Positions 41,915-51,580 of a stretch of DNA of 64,000 nt are shown here, one piece after another. Below the pieces are notes generated by a model. The model saw only the letters and a list, made by a program, of their open reading frames with translations, had not been told where the DNA came from and ran no database searches. Each line of letters starts with the position of its first letter. Within the stretch, counting starts at the first letter, position 1. A program made the translations under genes and the position numbers. The stretch is from Candidatus Latescibacterota bacterium (GTDB lineage Bacteria; Latescibacterota; UBA2968; UBA8231). The stretch covers positions 2,592,001 through 2,656,000 of the forward strand of contig OZ220089.1 in NCBI GenBank assembly GCA_964291625.2, read 5' to 3'.

Positions 41915-42367
41915 ATGCTCACAGCGTGGATCGTCGCGGGCGCGATCATGATCCTGCTGGAGTTGTTCCTGCCCGGAATGGTGCTCGGCTTTCTCGGGTC
42001 GAGCGCCCTGATCGTGGCCGCCCTCATCTGGCTGGGCTGGATCGACAGCCTGATCTCGGCCCTCACCACCTGGTTCATCCTCTCCCTCGTCCTGCTCCTG
42101 AGTCTGCGCGGCCTGTTCCTCCGCTTCGTCGGGGGCAGGTCCGAGCGCCAGTCCACCGACGAGGAGGAGGATGCCTACGGCACGGTCGTGGACGTGGTGG
42201 AGAGGATCTCACCGGACCGGGCGGGACGGATCCACTACCGGGACGCCACCTGGCAGGCGATCTGCCATGATCGCACCATCGAGGCCGGAGAGAAGGCGAT
42301 CCTCGCCTATCGCGAGAACCTCGCGTGGGTCGTCGAGCCCGCCGGGCTGGAGGAAAGCGATCCTTGA
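41915..42367 (+). CDS. NfeD family membrane protein
   Basis: N-terminal TM helices plus an OB-fold ('GRIHYRDATWQA'); immediately upstream of the SPFH genes. Confidence 0.85.
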   Translation: MLTAWIVAGAIMILLELFLPGMVLGFLGSSALIVAALIWLGWIDSLISALTTWFILSLVLLLSLRGLFLRFVGGRSERQSTDEEEDAYGTVVDVVERISPDRAGRIHYRDATWQAICHDRTIEAGEKAILAYRENLAWVVEPAGLEESDP

Positions 42368-42384: not shown

Positions 42385-43317
42385 ATGCCGCTTCTGACCT
42401 ACTTCACGATCCTGGTGCTGATCGCCCTGTTCGTGGTGCTCAAGACGTTCGTCGTCGTGCCCATGCGCGAGGCGGTCATCGTCGAGCGCCTGGGCAAGTT
42501 CCGGGCGGTCCTGCCGCCGGGGTTCCACTTCCTCATCCCCTTCTGCGACCGCATCGCCTACCGCCACGAGACCCGCGAGCAGGTGATCGACGTCCCCAGC
42601 CAGGCCTGCATCACCCGCGACAACATCCAGGTCGAGGTCGACGGTCTGGTCTACCTGCAGGTGCTCGACCCCGAGCGGGCCAGCTACGGCATCGAGGACT
42701 ACCGCCGCGCCAGCGTCAACCTGGCGCAGACGACGATGCGGGCCGAGATCGGCAAGCTGACCCTGGGCCAGTGCTTCTACGAGCGAGAGTCCCTGAACGA
42801 GACGATCGTGCAGGAGATCGACAAGGCGTCGAACCCCTGGGGCATCAAGGTGCTGCGCTACGAGCTGCGGAACATCACGCCCTCGGCCAACGTGGTGAAC
42901 ACCCTGGAGAAGCAGATGGAGGCGGAGCGCGAGAAGCGCGCCGAGATCACCCGCGCCGCCGCCGAGAAGGAGTCCACCATCAACCTCTCCGAGGGCGAGC
43001 GCCAGGAGGAGATCAACATCTCGGAGGGCGAGAAGCAGCGCCGGATCAACGTCGCCAAGGGCCGGGCGGAGGCGATCTCCATCATCGCCGAGGCCACCGC
43101 CGAGGGCACCGAGCGGATCGCCGCCGCGGTCCAGAAGGAAGGGGGGTCGGCGGCGCTGAAGATGCAGCTGGTGGAGGAGTACATCGAGATGATCAGCGAG
43201 ATCGCGGGAAAGTCCAACGTCTCCGTCGTGCCCCTGGAGCTGGCCCGGATCAAGGGCTTCTTCGAGGGGCTGGGCGAGGTCTCCGGTGGCACGCCGACCC
43301 AGAAGAAGGGAGCCTGA
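42385..43317 (+). CDS. SPFH/Band 7 (stomatin/paraslipin) protein
   Basis: 'VERLGKF', 'CITRDNIQVEVDG', 'LAQTTMR' and 'QMEAEREKRA'. Confidence 0.92.
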   Translation: MPLLTYFTILVLIALFVVLKTFVVVPMREAVIVERLGKFRAVLPPGFHFLIPFCDRIAYRHETREQVIDVPSQACITRDNIQVEVDGLVYLQVLDPERASYGIEDYRRASVNLAQTTMRAEIGKLTLGQCFYERESLNETIVQEIDKASNPWGIKVLRYELRNITPSANVVNTLEKQMEAEREKRAEITRAAAEKESTINLSEGERQEEINISEGEKQRRINVAKGRAEAISIIAEATAEGTERIAAAVQKEGGSAALKMQLVEEYIEMISEIAGKSNVSVVPLELARIKGFFEGLGEVSGGTPTQKKGA

Positions 43318-43318
43318 C

Positions 43319-44248
43319 ATGTCGACCGTCTTCGAGATCTTCAACTTCACCGTCTGGGGCGTTCTGCTCCTGGTCCTGATCGTCATGTTCCTGCGCTCGA
43401 TCCGGCTGGTGCCGACCCAGTCGGCGTACGTCGTCGAGCGGCTCGGCCAGTACTCCAGGACGCTGAATCCCGGTTTTCACGCCCTGGTGCCCTTCATCGA
43501 AAGGGTGGCCTTCATCCGCGACCTCAAGGAGGAGACCGTGGACGTGCCGCCCCAGGAGTGCTTCACCCGGGACGAGGTCCAGGTCGAGGTGGACGGCGTC
43601 CTCTACATCTCGGTCACCGACCCGGTGAAGGCCAGCTACGGGGTGACCAACTACTCCTTCGCCGCCATGCAACTGGCGCAGACGACGACCCGCTCCGTCA
43701 TCGGCACCCTCGAGCTCGACCGCACCTTCGAGGAGCGCGACCTGATCTCGGCCAAGGTCGTGGAGGTGCTGGAGAGGTCGGGGGAGACCTGGGGGATCCG
43801 CGTCCACCGCTACGAGATCAAGAACCTGTCGCCGCCGCCGACGGTGAAGGACGCCATGGAGAAGCAGGTCACCGCCGAGCGCGACCGCCGCGCCATCGTG
43901 GCCCAGTCGGAGGGCGACAAGCAGAGCCGCATCAACACCTCGGAGGGCCGGCGCCTGGAGCTGATCAACCGCTCGGAGGGCGAGATGCAGCGCACCATCA
44001 ACGAGGCCCAGGGCCAGGCCGAGGAGGTCCGGGCCATCGCCCACGCGACGGCCGAGTCGATCGAGAAGATCGCGGCCTCGATCAGCGTCGCCGGCGGCGC
44101 CCAGTCGGTGCACCTGCAGCTGGCGGAGCGCTACCTGAAGAGGCTGCGTGCTCTGGCCGACGGCAAGACGGACGTGCTCCTGCCCGTGGACCTGGCCAAC
44201 CCTCAGCAGCTGCTGGACGCCATCGAGTTGCGCGGGCCTGACGGATAG
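43319..44248 (+). CDS. Second SPFH/Band 7 (paraslipin) protein
   Basis: 'VVERLGQY', 'CFTRDEVQVEVDG', 'LAQTTTR' and 'QVTAERDRRA'. Confidence 0.92.
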   Translation: MSTVFEIFNFTVWGVLLLVLIVMFLRSIRLVPTQSAYVVERLGQYSRTLNPGFHALVPFIERVAFIRDLKEETVDVPPQECFTRDEVQVEVDGVLYISVTDPVKASYGVTNYSFAAMQLAQTTTRSVIGTLELDRTFEERDLISAKVVEVLERSGETWGIRVHRYEIKNLSPPPTVKDAMEKQVTAERDRRAIVAQSEGDKQSRINTSEGRRLELINRSEGEMQRTINEAQGQAEEVRAIAHATAESIEKIAASISVAGGAQSVHLQLAERYLKRLRALADGKTDVLLPVDLANPQQLLDAIELRGPDG

Positions 44249-44340
44249 CGCTGTCGGCCGCGGGGCCACGACTCGACACCACTCCCGCGGGCAGGGCGCC
44301 CCCGGCGGTCGGCGGGTGGGGAGCCGCCAGGGGCTGACGG

Positions 44341-47300
44341 TCACTGGTCGGAGAGTCCGACCAGCAGCCGCGAGTACTCGTCCTCCAGCGGATCGACCTC
44401 GCCCCGGAGGGCCGCCCGCGCGAAGACGATGCCCGGCCGCTCGACACGGCGGGCCCGGGCCAGCACGCCGAAACCCTCCGTCCCGGAGCCCCGCTGGCCC
44501 TCGCCGAGGGACTCGAACTCCGACAGGACGCGGAACAGGCCGCGCCGGGCGCCGACCACCCTGGCCAGCACCTCGGGCGCGGTGAGCCCCTCCCGCCAGG
44601 AGCGGCGGACCCCGAGGAGCCGGCCCTCGATGTCACGCACGAGTCCGCCCGGCCCCACCAGGGTCGTGAGCTGATGGACCGTGGCCCGGGCGCCGCTGTG
44701 ACACAGCAGGGCGGCGGCGCCAAGGTCGTCGTCGTCGTAGTCGCGGAAGCCGGCGATAGTCGCCAGGGCCTCCTCGGCGCAGGCCTGCCACTGCGGCGCG
44801 TCGTCCCCTTCCGGAAGGGCGGGCAGGTCGAGGGTGTGGCCGATGAAGGGGCCGATGGAGGCGCCTTCCCCGCGGGCGGCTTCGAACCCCAGCCGCATCA
44901 GTTCCGCGGCCACGCCCAGGGCCGCCCGCTCCCCCTCGGCGGCCAGCACCTCCCGCAGCAGCCTCGAGGCCGCCGCCCGCGTGAGGAGTCCGCCCTCGAG
45001 TTCCGGTTCCCGCCCCGCGGCCTCCGCGATCCTCTTCCGGCCCGCCGCCGAGCGGCCGAGGCAGGCGAGCCCGAAGAGGGCGTCCATGCCCGGCAGCAGG
45101 TCCTCCAGGAGATCGGGATCCCGGGCCAGGTGGGCGGCGATGGACAGCCGCTCGCGGGTCTCGCCCTGGGCCATCTCCGTGAGGGGGAGGAAGACGGCCG
45201 CCTGGTCGCCGTCGAAGTCGACGTCCAGCAGGCCGCAGGCCAGGGGGCAGAGGCGGATGGCATGGCCCGGGACCGGCAGGGGCCGGAAGGCCAGCATCGC
45301 CGTGGGGCTGACGGATGGAGCGTGATTGAGGATGATCCAGTGGGCCTCCATGGTGGCGGCGAGGGCGGCCCCGGCCTCGGAGAAGCGCCTGCTGACCGCT
45401 TCGGGATCCCCCAACTCGCGCGCCGCCAGCGGCCCGAAGAGGCTCCAGGCCATCTCCTCCGGCAGACCGATCCGGTCGGCCGCCAGGTCGCTTCCGGGGA
45501 CGATTACGGCGCGGCCGCTGAAGAGCACATTCTCATCCCGCCCCGGCTCCGGGGCCGGCGCCAGTCCGTCGTACAGGGCCGACACGGCGGCGGCCAGGTC
45601 GTCCCGGGCCGCGGCTGCCAGGGGCTCGGGAGCCTTATCCTTCAGCAGCCGCGCGAGCCGGGCGTTGGCGGCGGCGACCCCGGGATACCCGGCGGCCTCC
45701 TCCGCGTTGCAGACCTCGGACAGGGTCTCCCCCGGCAGCCACGGGTGGGGGACGCCGGCGGCCAGGGACAGCGTCGGCCCCGGGTGTGGTTCCAGCCGGA
45801 AGGCGACGCCCCCGGCGCCGGCTTCGGCGCGGATTCCGGCCTGCGCCAGCCCAGCCGCCAGGGCGGCGAAGGCGGGTGAGGGGGTGGTCGCCGGCTCGAC
45901 CGGTCCGGCGGCGGCCCTGCCGGCCAGGGAACCCGCGTCGCCGCGCCGGGTGGAGCAGGTGTTGGTCAGCTCCCGGATCACCGCGGGTGCGCCGGCCTCG
46001 GCCAAGGCCCGCACCTCCATCACCCCCAGGCGCTGGCCCCTGTCGTCCGGGTGGACGGCGGCCCTCAGCTTCGGGCGCGCGCGGTGCAGCGTGCAGCCCC
46101 AGTAGACCCATCCGGCCGTGGCCGGCCGCCGCAGGGGCGTGCCGCCGAGGGTCAGCCTGGTCATGCCGTCGGCGCGCAGGCCGCTGCCCCGAAGCAGGTC
46201 CCGCAGCTGCTCGTCCGAGGGCGCCTCGAAGGGCGGCACCACGGCGGGCTCCCCCCGCAGGAGGGCCGCGTGGCCGAGGGCGGCCTCCCGGACCAGCCCC
46301 ATGACCCAGCGGGACGGGATGCCCGAGAAGCTGAAGACCAGCTCCACGGGGGTGCCGTCCGGCAGCCGCGGCATCTCCTCGTCGGGCGCCACCCGCGACA
46401 CGACGCCCTTGACCCCGTGCCGGTTGCTGAGCTTGTCGCCGGCTTCGAGGGGGTCCGGGCAGGCGAGCTTGCGGGCGCCGGACCGGCTGACCAGCAAGGC
46501 GTCGTCGAAAGCGTCGCCGTCCCAGGAGACCAGGGCCGTGAGGAGGTTCCGGCCGCACCAGAAGTCCGGCGCCGTCGGCTCGAGGCCGGTCCGCACCAGG
46601 GCCGGCTCCCTCTCGGCGGGCGCCAGCCACTGGCGCATCATGTTGGCGCCCATGAGCACGCGGTTGCCGTCGTCGTTCTCGAGGAAGGGGACGCAGGCGC
46701 CGGAGATGCCCAGTCCCTCCGCGGGCTGCGCGTCGACGATCACCAGCCGGCGGCCTCGGATCTCCGCTCCCCGGGAAATCGTCAGGACGCGGCCGATGTT
46801 CGGTCCTTCCGGGGTCTCGAAGGGGCAGGTGCGGCCGAAGTGGGCCGGGGTGAACACCTCCTGGCGGCCGGGGACCAGGAGCCGGCGCAGGTGCGCGGCC
46901 CGGGACAGCCAGTTGGTGTCGTCGAGCCGCTCGCCGCAGGAGGCCAGGAAGGCCTGGAACCAGTCCCCCAGAGGCGCCAGGGTCCGCAGGAGGGACCCGT
47001 CGAGGGGGGTGTGCTCGGGGACCTGGCCCAGGCGGGCCTCGATGAAGGTGGAGAGCCGGTCGCCGAGACAGCCGATGCGCGCCTCGGCCAGGTCGTCGCG
47101 GTCGGCCACGGGAGGCACGACCAGCTCGACGCCGCCCGAGGGGTCGCGCTCCCCCCCGGGGATCGTCCTCGGAGGCGGCAGGCTGGGACTGGCCTCCGCC
47201 ACCCGGAAGACGCCCTCTTCGTCCGGCGCGGGCAGCCCGTCGTATTCGACCTCGAAGTCCCCCTCGACCGAGGGTCCGCCGAGGACGATCCGGCAGGCGT

Positions 47301-47427
47301 GCTCGCCGGCCCCTTCGGCGCGGTAGCTGCTCACCCCCAGCCGTGCGGCCAGCAGCTCGGGAAGGCGGCGGTGCAGGAAGTCGTCGAAGGAGGCCTTGTG
47401 CCACGGGTTGGCCGGCGTCGTTCTCAT
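44341..47427 (-). CDS. Miniature single-chain RNA polymerase-like protein (fused, truncated RpoB+RpoC; 1028 aa)
   Basis: RpoB motifs appear in order: HFGRTCPFETPEGPNIG, PFLENDDGNRVLMGANMMRQ, WDGDAFDDALLVS, GDKLSNRHGVKGVVS, GIPSR, GQRLGVMEV. RpoC motifs follow in order: clamp helices, FSGRAVIVPG, LNHAP, DVDFDGDQ, SGARA, REGL..GARRGL. Confidence 0.9.
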   Translation of the reverse strand: MRTTPANPWHKASFDDFLHRRLPELLAARLGVSSYRAEGAGEHACRIVLGGPSVEGDFEVEYDGLPAPDEEGVFRVAEASPSLPPPRTIPGGERDPSGGVELVVPPVADRDDLAEARIGCLGDRLSTFIEARLGQVPEHTPLDGSLLRTLAPLGDWFQAFLASCGERLDDTNWLSRAAHLRRLLVPGRQEVFTPAHFGRTCPFETPEGPNIGRVLTISRGAEIRGRRLVIVDAQPAEGLGISGACVPFLENDDGNRVLMGANMMRQWLAPAEREPALVRTGLEPTAPDFWCGRNLLTALVSWDGDAFDDALLVSRSGARKLACPDPLEAGDKLSNRHGVKGVVSRVAPDEEMPRLPDGTPVELVFSFSGIPSRWVMGLVREAALGHAALLRGEPAVVPPFEAPSDEQLRDLLRGSGLRADGMTRLTLGGTPLRRPATAGWVYWGCTLHRARPKLRAAVHPDDRGQRLGVMEVRALAEAGAPAVIRELTNTCSTRRGDAGSLAGRAAAGPVEPATTPSPAFAALAAGLAQAGIRAEAGAGGVAFRLEPHPGPTLSLAAGVPHPWLPGETLSEVCNAEEAAGYPGVAAANARLARLLKDKAPEPLAAAARDDLAAAVSALYDGLAPAPEPGRDENVLFSGRAVIVPGSDLAADRIGLPEEMAWSLFGPLAARELGDPEAVSRRFSEAGAALAATMEAHWIILNHAPSVSPTAMLAFRPLPVPGHAIRLCPLACGLLDVDFDGDQAAVFLPLTEMAQGETRERLSIAAHLARDPDLLEDLLPGMDALFGLACLGRSAAGRKRIAEAAGREPELEGGLLTRAAASRLLREVLAAEGERAALGVAAELMRLGFEAARGEGASIGPFIGHTLDLPALPEGDDAPQWQACAEEALATIAGFRDYDDDDLGAAALLCHSGARATVHQLTTLVGPGGLVRDIEGRLLGVRRSWREGLTAPEVLARVVGARRGLFRVLSEFESLGEGQRGSGTEGFGVLARARRVERPGIVFARAALRGEVDPLEDEYSRLLVGLSDQ

Positions 47428-47428
47428 G

Positions 47429-48034
47429 TCAGTCTTCCTCCCAGTCGATCCCCAGCTCGCGCCAGGATCGAGCGATCTGTTTGCGGGCGTGGTGGATCCG
47501 GGACTTCACCGTGCCCTCGGGTATGCCCAGCTCCAAAGCGGCCTGGCGAGTGTTCATGTTGCCGTCGTAGATCAGCCGGATGACCTTGCGCCGGTCCTCC
47601 GGCAGGCGCGTCACCAGGCCGCGCAGCAGCCGCCGGCGCTCCGCCAGGGCCAGGACCTCGTCGGGCGGAAGGGTGGAGGCGTCGATCATCCATTCCGGCA
47701 CCCGCTCCTCCCTCCCCTCCTCTCCCTCCATGGCGGGGGGAGGCTGCAGCGGCTGCTCGTGACGGCGCCGGACCGAGCGGATGTGGTTGAGGGCCAGGTT
47801 CGTGGCGATGCGCAGCAGCCAGGCGAGCAGGGGGCCCTCGCCCTTCCACTGTCCGGCGCGGTGCCACAGACGGAGGAAGACCTCCTGACCGACGTCGGCG
47901 GCGTCCTCGTCATGGCGATGGATGCGCCGCAGGTGACGCTGCACATCGGCGCGGTAGCGCTCGAAGAGCTTGGCGAAGTCCTCCTGCCGCCCCTCGATCA
48001 CCCCGCGGACCAGCTCCTCGTCGCTCTTCCCCAT
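47429..48034 (-). CDS. ECF (group 4) RNA polymerase sigma factor
   Basis: Region 2 'DAADVGQEVFLRLW..WLLRIATNLALN' and region 4 'LPEDRRKVIRL..AALELGIPEGTVKSRIHHAR'. Confidence 0.93.
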   Translation of the reverse strand: MGKSDEELVRGVIEGRQEDFAKLFERYRADVQRHLRRIHRHDEDAADVGQEVFLRLWHRAGQWKGEGPLLAWLLRIATNLALNHIRSVRRRHEQPLQPPPAMEGEEGREERVPEWMIDASTLPPDEVLALAERRRLLRGLVTRLPEDRRKVIRLIYDGNMNTRQAALELGIPEGTVKSRIHHARKQIARSWRELGIDWEED

Positions 48035-48048
48035 CCGGCCTCCACCCG

Positions 48049-48077
48049 GTTGACACCGCCGGCGCCTGCCGGGTTCA
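48049..48077 (-). promoter_or_regulatory. Putative ECF-sigma (autoregulatory) promoter
   Basis: The minus strand reads TGAACCC-N16-GTCAAC, then GGAGG, then the sigma ATG 14 nt after the -10 element. Confidence 0.6.
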
Positions 48078-49421
48078 CCGGGCCGGGGGAGCCGGTTCCG
48101 CGATGCAGTAGAGGTGGTGTCGTCCCCGCAGATAGAGCTCGCCGCCGGCCAGGGCCGCCGAGGCGCTGAAGCTGTCGTCGAGGTGGTTGACGGCCAGGAC
48201 GGCGGGGGCGTCCGCGTGGCTGACGACCACGGTGGCGCCGTTGCGGCCGGTGACGTAGACGCGGCCGGCGGCGGCGACGGGAGAGGCGAAGACCCGGTCG
48301 AGGCCCTTCAACCGCATCGGCCCCGGCCGGTCCCCCCCGGTCCGGGCGTCGACGCGGGTGAGGATGTTCTGGAAGTGGCGGACGAAGTAGAGGGCGTCGC
48401 CGTAGAGCAGGAGGGAGGGGACGTACGGCGCCCCCCGGGTGCGGCTCCAGGCGGCCCGGCGGCTGCGGCTGTCCTCGCCCTCGGAGGGTTGGAGGGGAAT
48501 CGCCAGCACCGCCTGCCGGTCGTAGCTGCTCCCCGCGAAGACGAGGCCGAAGCCGGCCACCGGCGTGGCGACCACGTTCTCCACCGAGAGCCCCGGACAC
48601 TCCCAGATCCTGCGGCCGTCGGCGAGGTCGTAGCCGCGCACTCCCCCGGAGCCGCTGACCACGACCTGGGGCCGGCCGCCGGCCTCGGTGACGATGGGGG
48701 TGGTCCAGGACGAGGCCGGTGCGCGGGGGCTCTTCCAGCGGAGGGCGCCCGTCCCCTTGTCGAAGGCGGCGAGGAAGGACTCCCCCTCGTGGTCCCAATT
48801 GACGATCAGAGCCCCGCCGGCGACCGCCGGCGAGCTGCCTTCGCCGTGGCCGTGGAGCGGCTCCAGGGGGCCGAGGTCCAACTCCCACAGCAGCTCCCCA
48901 TCGAGATCGAGGCCGTAGATCCCGTGGGAGCCGAAGGAGGCGACCAGGTGCTCGCCGTCGGTCACCGCCGAGGCGGAGGCCAGGCTCGCCGTGTAGTGGC
49001 CGCCGGCGCGGGGCAGGGCCTCGCGCACCACCCGCTGCCAGAGGACCTGTCCCGTGCGGCGGTCCAGGGCGAGGACGACGAACCGGTGGCGGTGAGTGAC
49101 CGGCCGTTCGTCGTGGCTGCCCGGCAGGCCGCTGAGCTTCGGACGCAGAGGTTCGCCGTAGGGGACGGCGGCGGTGATGAAGATCCGGTCGCCCCAGACC
49201 ACCGGCGTCGAGTGGCCGCCGCCGGGAAGCGCCGCCTTCCAGCGCAGGTTGCGGGTCTCGCTCCACTCGAGCGGTGGATCGGCGTGGGGTGCGGCGCCGG
49301 TGCCCAGGGGGCCGCGCCAGGCGGGCCAGAAGCGGTCCCCATCGGTCTCCGGCTCGCCGGAGGCCGCGGTCAGCAGGCAGCAGACCACCGCGAGGGCCGC
49401 GGATGGGCCCATGCGGACCAT
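48075..49421 (-). CDS. PQQ-like / BamB-like beta-propeller secreted protein
   Basis: Signal peptide; 'WPAWRGP', 'GHSTPVVWGDRIF', 'SWTTP' and 'FASPV'. Confidence 0.87.
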   Translation of the reverse strand: MVRMGPSAALAVVCCLLTAASGEPETDGDRFWPAWRGPLGTGAAPHADPPLEWSETRNLRWKAALPGGGHSTPVVWGDRIFITAAVPYGEPLRPKLSGLPGSHDERPVTHRHRFVVLALDRRTGQVLWQRVVREALPRAGGHYTASLASASAVTDGEHLVASFGSHGIYGLDLDGELLWELDLGPLEPLHGHGEGSSPAVAGGALIVNWDHEGESFLAAFDKGTGALRWKSPRAPASSWTTPIVTEAGGRPQVVVSGSGGVRGYDLADGRRIWECPGLSVENVVATPVAGFGLVFAGSSYDRQAVLAIPLQPSEGEDSRSRRAAWSRTRGAPYVPSLLLYGDALYFVRHFQNILTRVDARTGGDRPGPMRLKGLDRVFASPVAAAGRVYVTGRNGATVVVSHADAPAVLAVNHLDDSFSASAALAGGELYLRGRHHLYCIAEPAPPAR

Positions 49422-49423
49422 TC

Positions 49424-51520
49424 TCAGACCACGGGGGGCGGGTCCGCTCTCCGTGCGGGCTCGGGATCGGCCAGGCGCAACAGGTCCCGCCGGGCGGAGG
49501 ACTGCGCCACCCGCACCCGCAGGACCTGGCCGGGCGCGGCCTGCAGCCGCTGCCCCCGGGGGGCGGGGACGTGGCACGCCACCGGGCCCTCGGGCAGCAG
49601 GACCAGGTGGCCGGGCCCGCGCGGCTCGGCGACCACGCACTGCAGCCGCGCCTTGTCCCCAAGGCTTTCGAGCCATTTGAGCGTCCAGTAGCGGCGGCTG
49701 CAGCGGCGCACGCGCTCCGCCGTCTCCCGGGCCTCGCGCGTCTCCAGCAGGATGCGCTCCAGGTCCTCTGCCGTCAGGGGGTCGGAGCGCCGGCCCGCGA
49801 TCCACAGCAGCTGCCGCTGCATGGCCAGGTCGACGTAGCTCGACAGGGGGCCGGCGCCCGGAGCGCAGGCCGGAAGTCCGAGACCCGCGTGGGGGGCGGG
49901 GGACGTCCCGAGCCTCTCGCGCGGGGTCCCGCTCTCGTGCAGATGGGTGCGGAGGACCTCGGCCGACGTGGAGTCGGCGGCGAGGGGGACGCCGGACTCG
50001 GCGGGCGGGGCCTCGCGCACCGCGTGGATCGCGGGCGCCGCGTCGCGGCAGAGGCGGGCGATCGCTTCGGCGGCCAGCAGGCCCAGCTCCGAGTCGACGC
50101 GATCCTCAACCCCCTCCGCCGCCGGCTCCGCCCGTCCTTGACGGACCGCGATCCGGTCGGCGGGATGCAGTTGCTGCCAGGCCCCCGCCCGCCGCCGCCT
50201 CTGCCGCCGCCCCTCGGCCAGCGCCGCCAGGCGGCGCACCGGGGCGCTGCCCTCGCCGGCCGCGAGCGCCGCACGGGGCCGGGCGCGGCCCAGGGACAGC
50301 CGCACCTTCTGCGGCGCCAGCTCCCGGTCCAGGCGCACGCTCAGGATCAGGACGGGTCGGGCCTCGTCCGCCGTCAGCCGGCAGGCGTCGGTCAGATCCG
50401 GCGGCAGCATCGGGATCTCCCGCTCCAGCAGGCGCACGCTGAGTCCCCGGGCGGCGGCTTCCTGATCGATGGCGCCGCCGTCCTCCACCCACAGGGCCGG
50501 CACGGCCATGTGGATGTCGACGACGGTGTGGCCGAGCAGGCTCCGGCGGAGACGGTAGGCCCGCTGGCCGCAGCGGGTGACGCAGAGGCCCGCGCCCCAG
50601 CGTCGGCGGCCTGCCCACCCAGCGAGGACGGCCGAGGGGTCGAGGCCGCGCGCCGCTCTCTTCGCCGCCTCGGAGAATGCCACGGGCAGGCCGAGGCGGT
50701 GCAGCTCCAGGTTCTCGTCGGCGGACCAGTGACCCAGGCGGACGAGGACGTCGAAGGCGGCGTGGCTTCCGTGCAGGTTGGCAGCCTTCATCAGCCGGGC
50801 GGCCTCCGCGCTCGCCTCGCCCAGGGCGGCGGCCTCGAGCAGGTCCACCGCCGAGTCCGCCCCGACGGGACGGGGGCTGGATGGGTGCCCGTCGGCGACC
50901 CTTCGGACCCACGAGGCCAGCTCGGTCTGGCGGCCTTCCTCCCTCTCCTCGCGGGCCGAGGATGCCTCGATCCCCTCTACCGCCGCCGGGGAGCGGGGGC
51001 GCCAGCGGGCGCCGTGGCGCTCGAACCGGTGGCCGCGCCACAGGGCCCGGAGCATGCCGGCCCGGCGGCTGGCGTTCGGATCGCCGGGGTCGTGGAGCTC
51101 GACCAGATCGTCGAGCCGCCACTCGCCGCCCTCCGGGCCCCCCTCGAGAGCGACCTGCCAGAGGGCCGTGAGATCGACGGCGCCGCGGGCCTGCTCGCGC
51201 CTCCGGTCGATGCGGCGGAGGTCGGCCAGCGCCATCTCGGGGGTGTGCATCGACACGTACTCCGGGGATACGTCCACCACCTTGTCGCGGCGGAGGTGGA
51301 GCCGGCGGCCGTCGACGCCGACGACGTCGTAGCCCCTGCGGTTCTGCGGATCCCGGGCGAGGTAGCCGCACTGAAGCTGGCCGCCGCGGCGGAACTCGAG
51401 CACCGCGCCGGCGCGCTCGAGAGCGGGCTTCGCGCCGCGTTCGGCCTGCACCAGGCGCGCCACCTCCCGGCGGGAGGCGTCGTCGAGGGAGTTGGTCAGA
51501 TGTCGCGGCCAGCGGACCAT
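49424..51520 (-). CDS. RNB-domain (RNase II/R-like) protein with a degenerate active site
   Basis: 'IDQEAAARGLSV.L.EREIPMLP', 'HAGLGL....GPLSSYVDLAMQRQL', 'RRYW.LKWL' and a C-terminal S1-like region. The acidic catalytic DxxxxxDxDD motif is not visible. The start is the ATG at 51520, or the GTG at 51544. Confidence 0.72.
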   Translation of the reverse strand: MVRWPRHLTNSLDDASRREVARLVQAERGAKPALERAGAVLEFRRGGQLQCGYLARDPQNRRGYDVVGVDGRRLHLRRDKVVDVSPEYVSMHTPEMALADLRRIDRRREQARGAVDLTALWQVALEGGPEGGEWRLDDLVELHDPGDPNASRRAGMLRALWRGHRFERHGARWRPRSPAAVEGIEASSAREEREEGRQTELASWVRRVADGHPSSPRPVGADSAVDLLEAAALGEASAEAARLMKAANLHGSHAAFDVLVRLGHWSADENLELHRLGLPVAFSEAAKRAARGLDPSAVLAGWAGRRRWGAGLCVTRCGQRAYRLRRSLLGHTVVDIHMAVPALWVEDGGAIDQEAAARGLSVRLLEREIPMLPPDLTDACRLTADEARPVLILSVRLDRELAPQKVRLSLGRARPRAALAAGEGSAPVRRLAALAEGRRQRRRRAGAWQQLHPADRIAVRQGRAEPAAEGVEDRVDSELGLLAAEAIARLCRDAAPAIHAVREAPPAESGVPLAADSTSAEVLRTHLHESGTPRERLGTSPAPHAGLGLPACAPGAGPLSSYVDLAMQRQLLWIAGRRSDPLTAEDLERILLETREARETAERVRRCSRRYWTLKWLESLGDKARLQCVVAEPRGPGHLVLLPEGPVACHVPAPRGQRLQAAPGQVLRVRVAQSSARRDLLRLADPEPARRADPPPVV

Positions 51521-51528
51521 GGTCCCTG

Positions 51529-51580
51529 AGGGTATCCTCTCCACTTCGACAGTGTCAACCGCAATCCGAGGGCCTATAAT
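51529..51580. promoter_or_regulatory. Overlapping divergent sigma70-like promoters
   Basis: The plus strand has GTGTCA-N17-TATAAT (51552-51580) before the 51595 gene. The minus strand has TTGACA-N18-TACCCT (51558-51529), 8 nt before the RNB ATG. Confidence 0.45.

Follow-up and report, generated by a model that had tools for sequence, protein, structure and literature searches.

The locus described here lies in a stretch of 64,000 nucleotides from a Candidatus Latescibacterota bacterium (contig OZ220089.1, positions 2,592,001 to 2,656,000), which as a whole is called the window. On its minus strand, two adjacent genes were found downstream of a predicted promoter: one for a sigma factor of the extracytoplasmic function (ECF) type, and one for a single-chain, cut-down RNA polymerase, called the mini-polymerase below. 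The features of this module, in coordinates of the window, are the following.

48052-48077, minus strand: ECF-type promoter TGAAC-N16-GTGTC, with TGAAC at 48077-48073 and GTGTC at 48056-48052
47429-48034, minus strand: ECF sigma factor gene (P0002), 201 amino acids (open reading frame list, Pfam, NCBIfam, alignment of 59 orthologues)
47437-47441, minus strand: GGAGG ribosome-binding site of the polymerase gene, inside the final sigma codons and 9 nucleotides ahead of the ATG (sequence read)
44341-47427, minus strand: mini-polymerase gene (P0001), 1028 amino acids, single-chain beta-beta' (Pfam, AF2 model, Foldseek)

Read on the minus strand, the junction of the two genes is GACTGGGAGGAAGACTGACATGAGA within GGGAGGAAGACTGACATG, in which the sigma TGA (47431-47429) is followed by a C at 47428 and by the ATG of the polymerase gene (47427-47425). 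The single base that the initial annotation had placed between stop and start is exact to the base, both in the open reading frame list and in the sequence read. The purine-rich stretch that it had noted in the last sigma codons is likewise present, as GAGGAAGA at 47440-47433, with GGAGG at 47441-47437.

Relatives of the mini-polymerase were collected by a pattern scan over one genome per species, which returned 160; the best 80 were kept and represent 79 distinct loci, among them loci from Chloroflexota-type (31), Poribacteria (18), Planctomycetota-type (10), Latescibacterota (8), Armatimonadota (5), Gemmatimonadaceae (2) and Hydrogenedentota (1) genomes. An orthologous sigma gene was found directly upstream and on the same strand at 76 of the 76 testable loci, in seven phylum-level groups, with E-values from 5e-29 to 4e-127; at the remaining three of the 79 (L036, L072 and L079) the contig ends 23-52 nucleotides before the polymerase open reading frame. 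The linkage to an ECF sigma that the initial annotation had read from one locus is therefore conserved across homologues (76/76), and the unlinked homologues that it had named as contrary evidence were not seen. Among the 76 loci the two genes overlap at 25, are 0-20 nucleotides apart at 21, 21-100 at 17 and more than 100 at 13. The polymerase gene thus lies directly after its sigma gene, where an anti-sigma gene would be, at all 76, and it overlaps the sigma gene or is at most 20 nucleotides from it at 46/76. Adjacency is universal, while tight coupling is common but not universal. The long gaps frequently contain short repeats; in the spacers of 233-324 nucleotides at L044, L069 and L051 these are short tandem repeats with CACGAAGA-like and CTCTGTG-like units. 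An open frame of 1248 amino acids in genome G112 was considered as a fusion and rejected, since a TGA stop lies at L203 1144-1146.

Clustering of the open reading frames of these loci returned only two families conserved across groups, the sigma and the polymerase. The next clusters were out-of-frame or antisense frames over the same two genes, and the next real genes occur at 13 loci at most, the largest such cluster being exemplified by Poribacteria. The statement of the initial annotation that no anti-sigma gene is present was borne out in this comparison, the neighbours in the window being PQQ/BamB-like and SPFH genes. Furthermore, the two genes co-occur. In 168 genomes of Latescibacterota the polymerase was found in 63, the sigma in 62 and both in 60, leaving three polymerase-only genomes, in which a sigma may have been missed because only 19 sigma candidates were scored per genome, and two sigma-only genomes, of which one is 75% complete and the other has its sigma at a contig end. 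In a second phylum the polymerase occurs in 30 of the 151 genomes sampled. The distribution is patchy, in that neither gene occurs in a genome of the same genus that consists of one contig and is 95% complete, and the module is mostly single-copy; one 8.4-Mb genome (G076) carries two sigma-polymerase pairs, at C1:1427414-1431186 and 3367761-3371728. Pairwise identities of sigma and polymerase correlate with a Mantel r of 0.88 (0/999 permutations as high), a value that fits joint inheritance but is not specific, because any two co-inherited genes correlate in this way. Metagenome-derived assemblies are the source of all 79 loci; run labels place carriers in habitats such as sponges. Where the protein is named at all it is almost always called 'hypothetical protein', with one JGI entry giving the three Pfam domains. 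The family has probably been missed so far because of its metagenomic origin and this naming.

The sigma factor is, by its sequence, an ECF (group IV) sigma of 201 amino acids with regions 2 and 4 only. Pfam matched Sigma70_r2 at 53.5 bits (cut-off 24) and Sigma70_r4_2 at 51.3 bits (cut-off 25.7), with no region 3, and NCBIfam matched TIGR02937 sigma70-ECF at 92.9 bits (cut-off 42.9). The solved structures most similar to it are those of the ECF sigmas called sigma-H, SigW and sigma-E. The alignment of 59 orthologues showed the usual signatures of regions 2 and 4, together with a conserved linker (RRRR..PL, an acidic run, P-x-W-M-x-D...P) and an acidic tail in which a W is frequent. At L008, L016 and L037 the sigma gene is split in two, and an in-frame TGA was found at G170:C6:17820-18422; these broken genes may be assembly errors or real decay. 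A weak match to the sigma family (E 1e-7) was given by the RpoE-named chain of PDB entries 9n9p and 9n9q ('Fta RNAP complex', 'RNA-guided transcription complex'), which is another recent ECF-type sigma with an unusual partner.

The mini-polymerase joins reduced versions of bacterial beta and beta' in a single chain. Pfam families above cut-off are Rpb2_3 (residues 168-222), Rpb2_6 (327-443) and Rpb1_2 (695-759), while the NCBIfam equivalogs lie far below theirs, rpoB at 154.7 bits against 801 and rpoC at 99.1 against 963. Normal rpoB and rpoC genes are present elsewhere in the genome, so the protein is an extra polymerase and not the core. Alignment to the host's own beta and beta' subunits and to solved chains gave conserved blocks that are 33-47% identical to host beta/beta', arranged as follows.

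46759-47010, minus strand: beta fork, ETPEGPNIG, residues 140-223 matching host beta 449-542; C201, E204, P206, E207, G208 and N210 (nearly) invariant
residues 231-283: host beta 614-666 (alignment)
residues 288-320: host beta 758-790 (alignment)
residues 321-492: host beta 1038-1225, the second half of the beta barrel and the C-terminal part
46405-46440, minus strand: beta barrel active-site motif GDKLSNRHGVKG, residues 330-341; G330, D331, K332, R336 and G338 invariant
residues 581-758: host beta' 264-476, with clamp helices, switch 2 and the barrel with DFDGDQ
45562-45687, minus strand: beta' clamp-helix hairpin, residues 581-622 matching host beta' 264-305, YRRVINRNNRL...APE...DALFDN
45202-45225, minus strand: beta' Mg-binding motif DVDFDGDQ, residues 735-742 (host NADFDGDQ); D737, F738, D739, G740 and D741 invariant in 79 sequences
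44503-44724, minus strand: F-loop and bridge helix, residues 902-975, of which 902-964 match host beta' 690-761; model helix 950-975

All elements of a two-barrel catalytic core are thus found, namely both barrel motifs, bridge helix, F-loop, fork and switch 2, whereas the full domain set of canonical RpoB/RpoC (lobes, flap, zinc finger, trigger loop and jaw) is not. Host beta 1-448 (protrusion and lobes), 543-613 and 791-1037 have no counterpart, and an unrelated-looking stretch of about 140 residues replaces the first 448 beta residues. Residues 320 and 321, which are adjacent here, correspond to host beta 790 and 1038, so that the flap, about 250 residues interrupting the host barrel, is missing. 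On the beta' side, host residues 1-263 (zinc finger and zipper) and most of those after 761 have no counterpart; only 53 residues follow the bridge helix, which leaves no room for a trigger loop or jaw. The clamp hairpin is kept, with N-x-R-L and A-P-E; in the model it forms helices 581-596 and 601-622, and within the hairpin N588 and R590 are nearly invariant, and P600 and L603 are invariant. For residues 1-140, a search of the ESM Atlas gave 0.91 to phage clusters, some members of which carry Rpb2_1 or Rpb2_2; this N-terminal stretch may be what is left of the beta protrusion or lobe, which is taken as a lead only.

Across 79 sequences of 44-91% identity, DFDGD (737-741), GDK..R.G (330-338), ETPEG and the switch-2 SGR are (nearly) invariant, and so are many further residues, a pattern that speaks for a compact enzyme maintained by selection and against a copy in decay. 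The AF2 model computed from these sequences reached a predicted local distance difference test score (pLDDT) of 91.3 and a predicted template modelling score of 0.89. The best solved matches in a profile search of the PDB were bacterial beta (E 1e-73) and beta' (E 9e-53), and the top Foldseek matches were bacterial and plastid beta and beta' chains. Pfam detected no anti-sigma or zinc-finger domain in the mini-polymerase and no HxxxCxxC zinc motif family; its conserved cysteines are limited to C45 and C120, both N-terminal, and to C201 and C731, whose counterparts in host beta/beta' are cysteines as well. At one locus (G264:C2:821107-824180) the polymerase is present as two adjacent frames, residues 9-545 in a frame of 610 amino acids and 550-1025 in one of 495; the split falls approximately at the beta/beta' boundary, and an unfused form, a frameshift or an assembly error is possible.

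A viral origin of the mini-polymerase was considered and rejected: a fused polymerase of about 1000 amino acids was found at 0 of 80 viral-contig loci, where beta'-like and beta-like genes stand apart or full-size rpoB/rpoC or rpoBC genes are present, and BFVD returned only distant polymerase matches. Most of these viral-contig loci (L118-L197) have a G+C content of 0.25-0.40 and a beta'-like gene of about 900 amino acids ahead of a beta-like gene of about 1000, an order opposite to that in bacteria; no sigma lies nearby, and one locus has a weak sigma-like open reading frame. Membership in a known defence system was also rejected, as PADLOC 2.0 gave 0 families for the polymerase and 0 for the sigma, and PHROGs matches were to polymerase and sigma families only.

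The initial annotation had placed a promoter at 48049-48077, and this stretch does contain a real conserved motif, at 48052-48077. In the window the GTGTC ends 17 nucleotides ahead of the sigma ATG, and the -35 element shares letters with the TGA stop of the PQQ-like gene that lies upstream. For the comparison, 73 upstream regions were taken, from 72 loci and the window, and four loci with a partial sigma were excluded. TGAAC-N16/15-GTGTC was found in 69 of the 73, with a spacer of 16 in 63 and of 15 in six, and once with GCGTC; the four misses have degenerate versions. The T before GAAC is almost constant, its column carrying 1.6 of 2 bits of information, and the distance from the end of the motif to the sigma start has a median of 21 nucleotides. 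An AAC-type -35 with a GTC-type -10, as in cognate ECF promoters, is present ahead of the sigma's own gene, and by sequence the promoter is of the classic autoregulated ECF design. A position weight matrix scan of the window's own genome ranked the module's own site best, at 23.9 bits, the next sites scoring 17.6 and 17.3; these lie in lower-G+C sequence that appears coding by eye. Neither a sigma-70-type promoter nor an intrinsic terminator was found in 44100-48300. In a DNA run (X3), a contig from a related strain has a 14-nucleotide insertion at 48067 (GCCGGGTTCACCGG, plus strand) that duplicates the -35 part of the promoter.

The beta' clamp helices are the usual docking site of sigma region 2. 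A joint structure prediction of sigma and mini-polymerase, which the initial annotation had proposed, scored 0.40 (runs 0.41, 0.23 and 0.40) against 0.00 for the best of three controls; the runs share at least 42% of their contacts, with a partner pLDDT of at least 63. Of 80 solved complexes 58 reached the pass mark, as did 2 of 110 mismatched pairs, and the passes at 0.60 or below comprised 7 of the 80 solved complexes and both passing mismatches, counts that are only rough because own alignments were used. Since complexes of a sigma with clamp helices have already been solved, the pass may reflect likeness to them. The co-fold thus lends weak, model-based support to binding, and it gave no interface. 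From the strict linkage, the retention of the clamp hairpin in an otherwise stripped enzyme and the co-fold together, we infer that the sigma may bind the mini-polymerase.

The reading that we favor, at a probability of roughly 45%, is a sigma-dependent minimal RNA polymerase encoded in a self-driving two-gene module. The module would consist of the 201-residue ECF sigma, the 1028-residue beta-beta' chain and one TGAAC-N16-GTGTC promoter driving both genes, often with translational coupling. Region 2 of the sigma would dock on the retained clamp-helix hairpin, and the sigma would direct the mini-enzyme to the promoter, where RNA would be made on DNA by the canonical two-barrel site without alpha, omega, flap or trigger loop. 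Since no copy of the promoter was detected in a genome beyond the module's own, the module would amplify itself, with the content of the operon as payload; in some lineages the payload may include an inserted ABC exporter or another gene. That this would represent a second sigma-programmed polymerase in at least seven phylum-level groups, with a private promoter and independent of the alpha2-beta-beta'-omega core, is a tentative proposition that we would sooner doubt than assert. The first of two models in the initial annotation, a two-gene holoenzyme with a private regulon, survives in part: linkage, promoter, clamp helices and the weak co-fold agree with the holoenzyme, while no regulon was found in the genomes searched and the flap is deleted.

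Several observations weigh against this reading. The mini-enzyme lacks the trigger loop as well as the walls of the RNA exit channel, and polymerase activity is therefore not to be assumed. The flap, described as the usual dock of sigma region 4 in an excerpt of PMC7824862, is deleted from the mini-enzyme, and the fixed spacing of the -35 element corresponds to host-core geometry, so that the host core may be what reads the promoter. Should the mini-enzyme read it, sigma region 4 might sit on the invariant N-terminal helix (residues 9-30) or on residues 493-580, which is a guess. The clamp hairpin has a mean column identity of 0.57, against 0.64 for the whole protein; the co-fold score is weak, with no interface returned; and no sigma-polymerase fusion was found when the sigma was compared with longer proteins, which is weak evidence. 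The four runs compared with the window consist of contigs, which give no start, end, strand or level and in which uncovered stretches are uninformative; for the RNA-library contig over the junction, DNA carry-over is possible. Finally, the strict motif is not enriched as expected of a regulon. It has 15 matches in the window's own genome against about 10 expected, and in five other genomes 16, 11, 5, 6 and 27 matches against 13, 11, 8, 7 and 9 for the reversed pattern, the sole exception being G005 with 27 against 9. A stricter pattern applied to 168 genomes gave no excess in carriers over genomes without the module: one site precedes the sigma gene in carriers such as G077-G097, background matches occur everywhere, and in family f10 the pattern matches in 10 of 13 genomes, of which 0 of 13 carry the module. 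Among 30 strict sites inspected, two are the modules' own promoters, and only L092, L104 and L108 lie outside frames of at least 100 codons, a criterion that is crude because such frames also run over both own promoters. One recurrent site, present in five genomes, was considered as an extra target and rejected, as it lies inside an open reading frame of 308 amino acids. Either the module is its own sole promoter-defined target, or it has others that do not resemble this one.

Part of this evidence would be accommodated if the sigma used the ordinary host core to activate its own operon, and the mini-polymerase were a sigma-independent effector that, in one version, transcribes special templates (for example ends, nicks, single strands or foreign DNA). 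A mini-enzyme without a flap beside a promoter with a strictly spaced -35 fits this arrangement, as does a sigma that is an ordinary ECF by sequence and close to solved core-binding ECFs. With the operon as the only detectable target, the polymerase would be the output, and the single-chain relative YonO is described without mention of a sigma in the excerpt of PMC5467207. Left unexplained would be why the clamp helices were kept though nearly all other peripheral parts were lost, and why the sigma never occurs without the enzyme (the two sigma-only genomes being 75% complete or having the sigma at a contig end); the co-fold, weak as it is, also points the other way. We regard this explanation, in its effector version as well, as unlikely. 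The second model of the initial annotation, in which the mini-polymerase mimics the core and sequesters the sigma on its clamp helices as an anti-sigma factor or buffer with negative feedback, is improbable. It stands insofar as the polymerase gene occupies the anti-sigma slot, co-transcribed and often translationally coupled, with no other anti-sigma gene conserved, and insofar as the clamp helices are present while the dock for sigma region 4 is absent. A binding mimic needs no catalysis, yet the catalytic apparatus is invariant in 79 sequences across seven phylum-level groups; in addition, Pfam found no anti-sigma or zinc-finger domain, and no regulon that the sigma could control as an output turned up in the genomes searched.

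The module could also be a back-up or decoy against inhibitors of the host polymerase, such as antibiotics or phage factors, with an enzyme that lacks jaw, flap, lobes and trigger loop keeping a small operon running or soaking up the drug. This proposal is combinable with the favored reading, and it draws on the ABC exporter between the two genes at L198 and L199, the ABC genes upstream of the sigma at L047, the patchy, accessory-like spread (63/168 and 30/151 genomes) and the origin of the carriers, which are metagenome-assembled genomes from sponges and the like. ABC exporters are widespread genes, however, and only two of five wide-gap loci have one, while another has an unrelated gene of 396 amino acids; PADLOC gave no matches, and a reader of one promoter cannot replace the core. 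A back-up or decoy role appears rather unlikely, in either form, and the sigma-dependent minimal polymerase remains the reading that we favor.

Some genes inserted into the operon provide a lead to function, and not more than that. In some Latescibacterota genomes the sigma and polymerase genes are 1.2-2.4 kb apart. An ABC exporter (ABC_membrane and ABC_tran) lies between them in the same orientation at two of five wide-gap loci (L198:1153-2946 and L199:1433-3193). Two of the five gaps are about 1.2-1.3 kb, one of them holding an open reading frame of 396 amino acids in the same orientation that matches no Pfam family (L200:1060-2250), and the fifth locus has a gap of 536 nucleotides with no clear open reading frame. 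The sigma gene of L047 is immediately preceded by ABC genes. For the window itself, a contig from an RNA library (X2, record 13; 1070 nucleotides, 8 differing letters, 99% identity; run labelled sponge metagenome) covers 47123-48185 and spans the promoter, the sigma gene and the junction, with flanking genes at similar depth.

The following genes flank the module in the window.

48075-49805, minus strand: PQQ/BamB-like beta-propeller gene with a signal-peptide-like start, upstream of the sigma gene (Pfam)
49424-51544, minus strand: RNB-domain exoribonuclease gene with a double helix-turn-helix, upstream of the PQQ-like gene (Pfam)
42385-43317 and 43286-44248, plus strand: two tandem SPFH/Band 7 genes, converging on the polymerase gene (Pfam)

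The TGA stop of the PQQ-like gene forms the first three letters of the -35 TGAAC. Neither the PQQ-like nor the RNB gene was seen among the gene clusters common to the 79 loci, though no search aimed at these two genes was made. A membrane open reading frame of 150 amino acids (41915-42367, plus strand), NfeD-like by eye only, precedes the SPFH genes.

To our knowledge, a single core enzyme is taken to carry out all cellular transcription in bacteria; the single-chain relatives that we know of come from phages, prophages and plasmids, and we know of none that uses a sigma. If the favored reading is true, a second transcription system would exist inside ordinary bacteria, and an independent enzyme of this kind would be the smallest sigma-dependent polymerase known. 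Flap, trigger loop, lobes and zinc finger would be dispensable for promoter-specific initiation, and a ready-made orthogonal, self-amplifying circuit would be at hand for synthetic biology as a compact set of sigma, polymerase and promoter. The finding opens the question of what minimal structure suffices for sigma-dependent promoter recognition and melting, and which parts of the 400-kDa core have been added for regulation. Should one of the other explanations be true, ECF sigmas would still have gained a partner of a new kind, in the form of a polymerase-shaped anti-sigma factor or a back-up against drugs or phages. The literature searched gave no description of this family or of its pairing with a sigma, though it did not cover the ECF-group neighbourhood tables; the main text of the 2021 ECF classification of Casas-Pastor (PMC7826278) contains no Rpb2, Rpb1, RpoB or 'RNAP-like'.

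Among known systems, ordinary ECF holoenzymes (6jbq with sigma-E, 5zx2 with SigH and 6dv9 with SigL) share with this module the two-domain sigma, the -35 AAC and -10 GTC elements, positive autoregulation and the clamp-helix dock, but the putative partner here is one chain of 1028 amino acids instead of alpha2-beta-beta'-omega, and the flap tip is missing. The operon is also built like those of ECF sigmas and their anti-sigma factors, with promoter, sigma and then a co-transcribed, often overlapping partner gene; in contrast to these, the partner has no anti-sigma domain and an intact polymerase active site. Full-length beta::beta' fusions (NF011417 and NF007172, of 2839 and 2890 positions) likewise have beta before beta', whereas those are full-size core subunits, and the mini-polymerase stays far below their cut-offs, with 148.7 bits against 4632 and 136.4 against 5372; separate rpoB and rpoC genes are present as well.

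Two single-chain enzymes are nearer in form. YonO of the Bacillus SPbeta prophage is a single-chain two-barrel RNA polymerase according to excerpts of PMC5467207 and PMC7824862, and as far as these describe it, it agrees with the mini-polymerase in being one chain of about 100 kDa with both barrels, without the flap (an insert of the sandwich-barrel hybrid motif) and without alpha or omega. Whereas YonO is prophage-encoded and described as very distant from beta/beta', the conserved blocks of the mini-polymerase are 33-47% identical to those of the host, and its gene is chromosomal, found in 79 genomes and preceded by a sigma gene. No YonO-like chain was found among its 60 best sequence or 50 best fold matches; its best solved matches are cellular beta and beta' chains, and YonO and QDE-1 are not its closest relatives. 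Orf6 of the Kluyveromyces lactis killer plasmid pGKL2 is an Rpb2::Rpb1 fusion of 982 amino acids (excerpt of PMC2919709), and as described there it similarly has the second-largest subunit first, a comparable size and about half of each parent deleted. Orf6 is encoded on a eukaryotic cytoplasmic linear plasmid, derives from Rpb2 and Rpb1 and has no sigma in that account, while the mini-polymerase derives from bacterial beta and beta' and keeps the clamp helices. In conclusion, the mini-polymerase resembles YonO and pGKL2 Orf6 in form and is a member of neither family.

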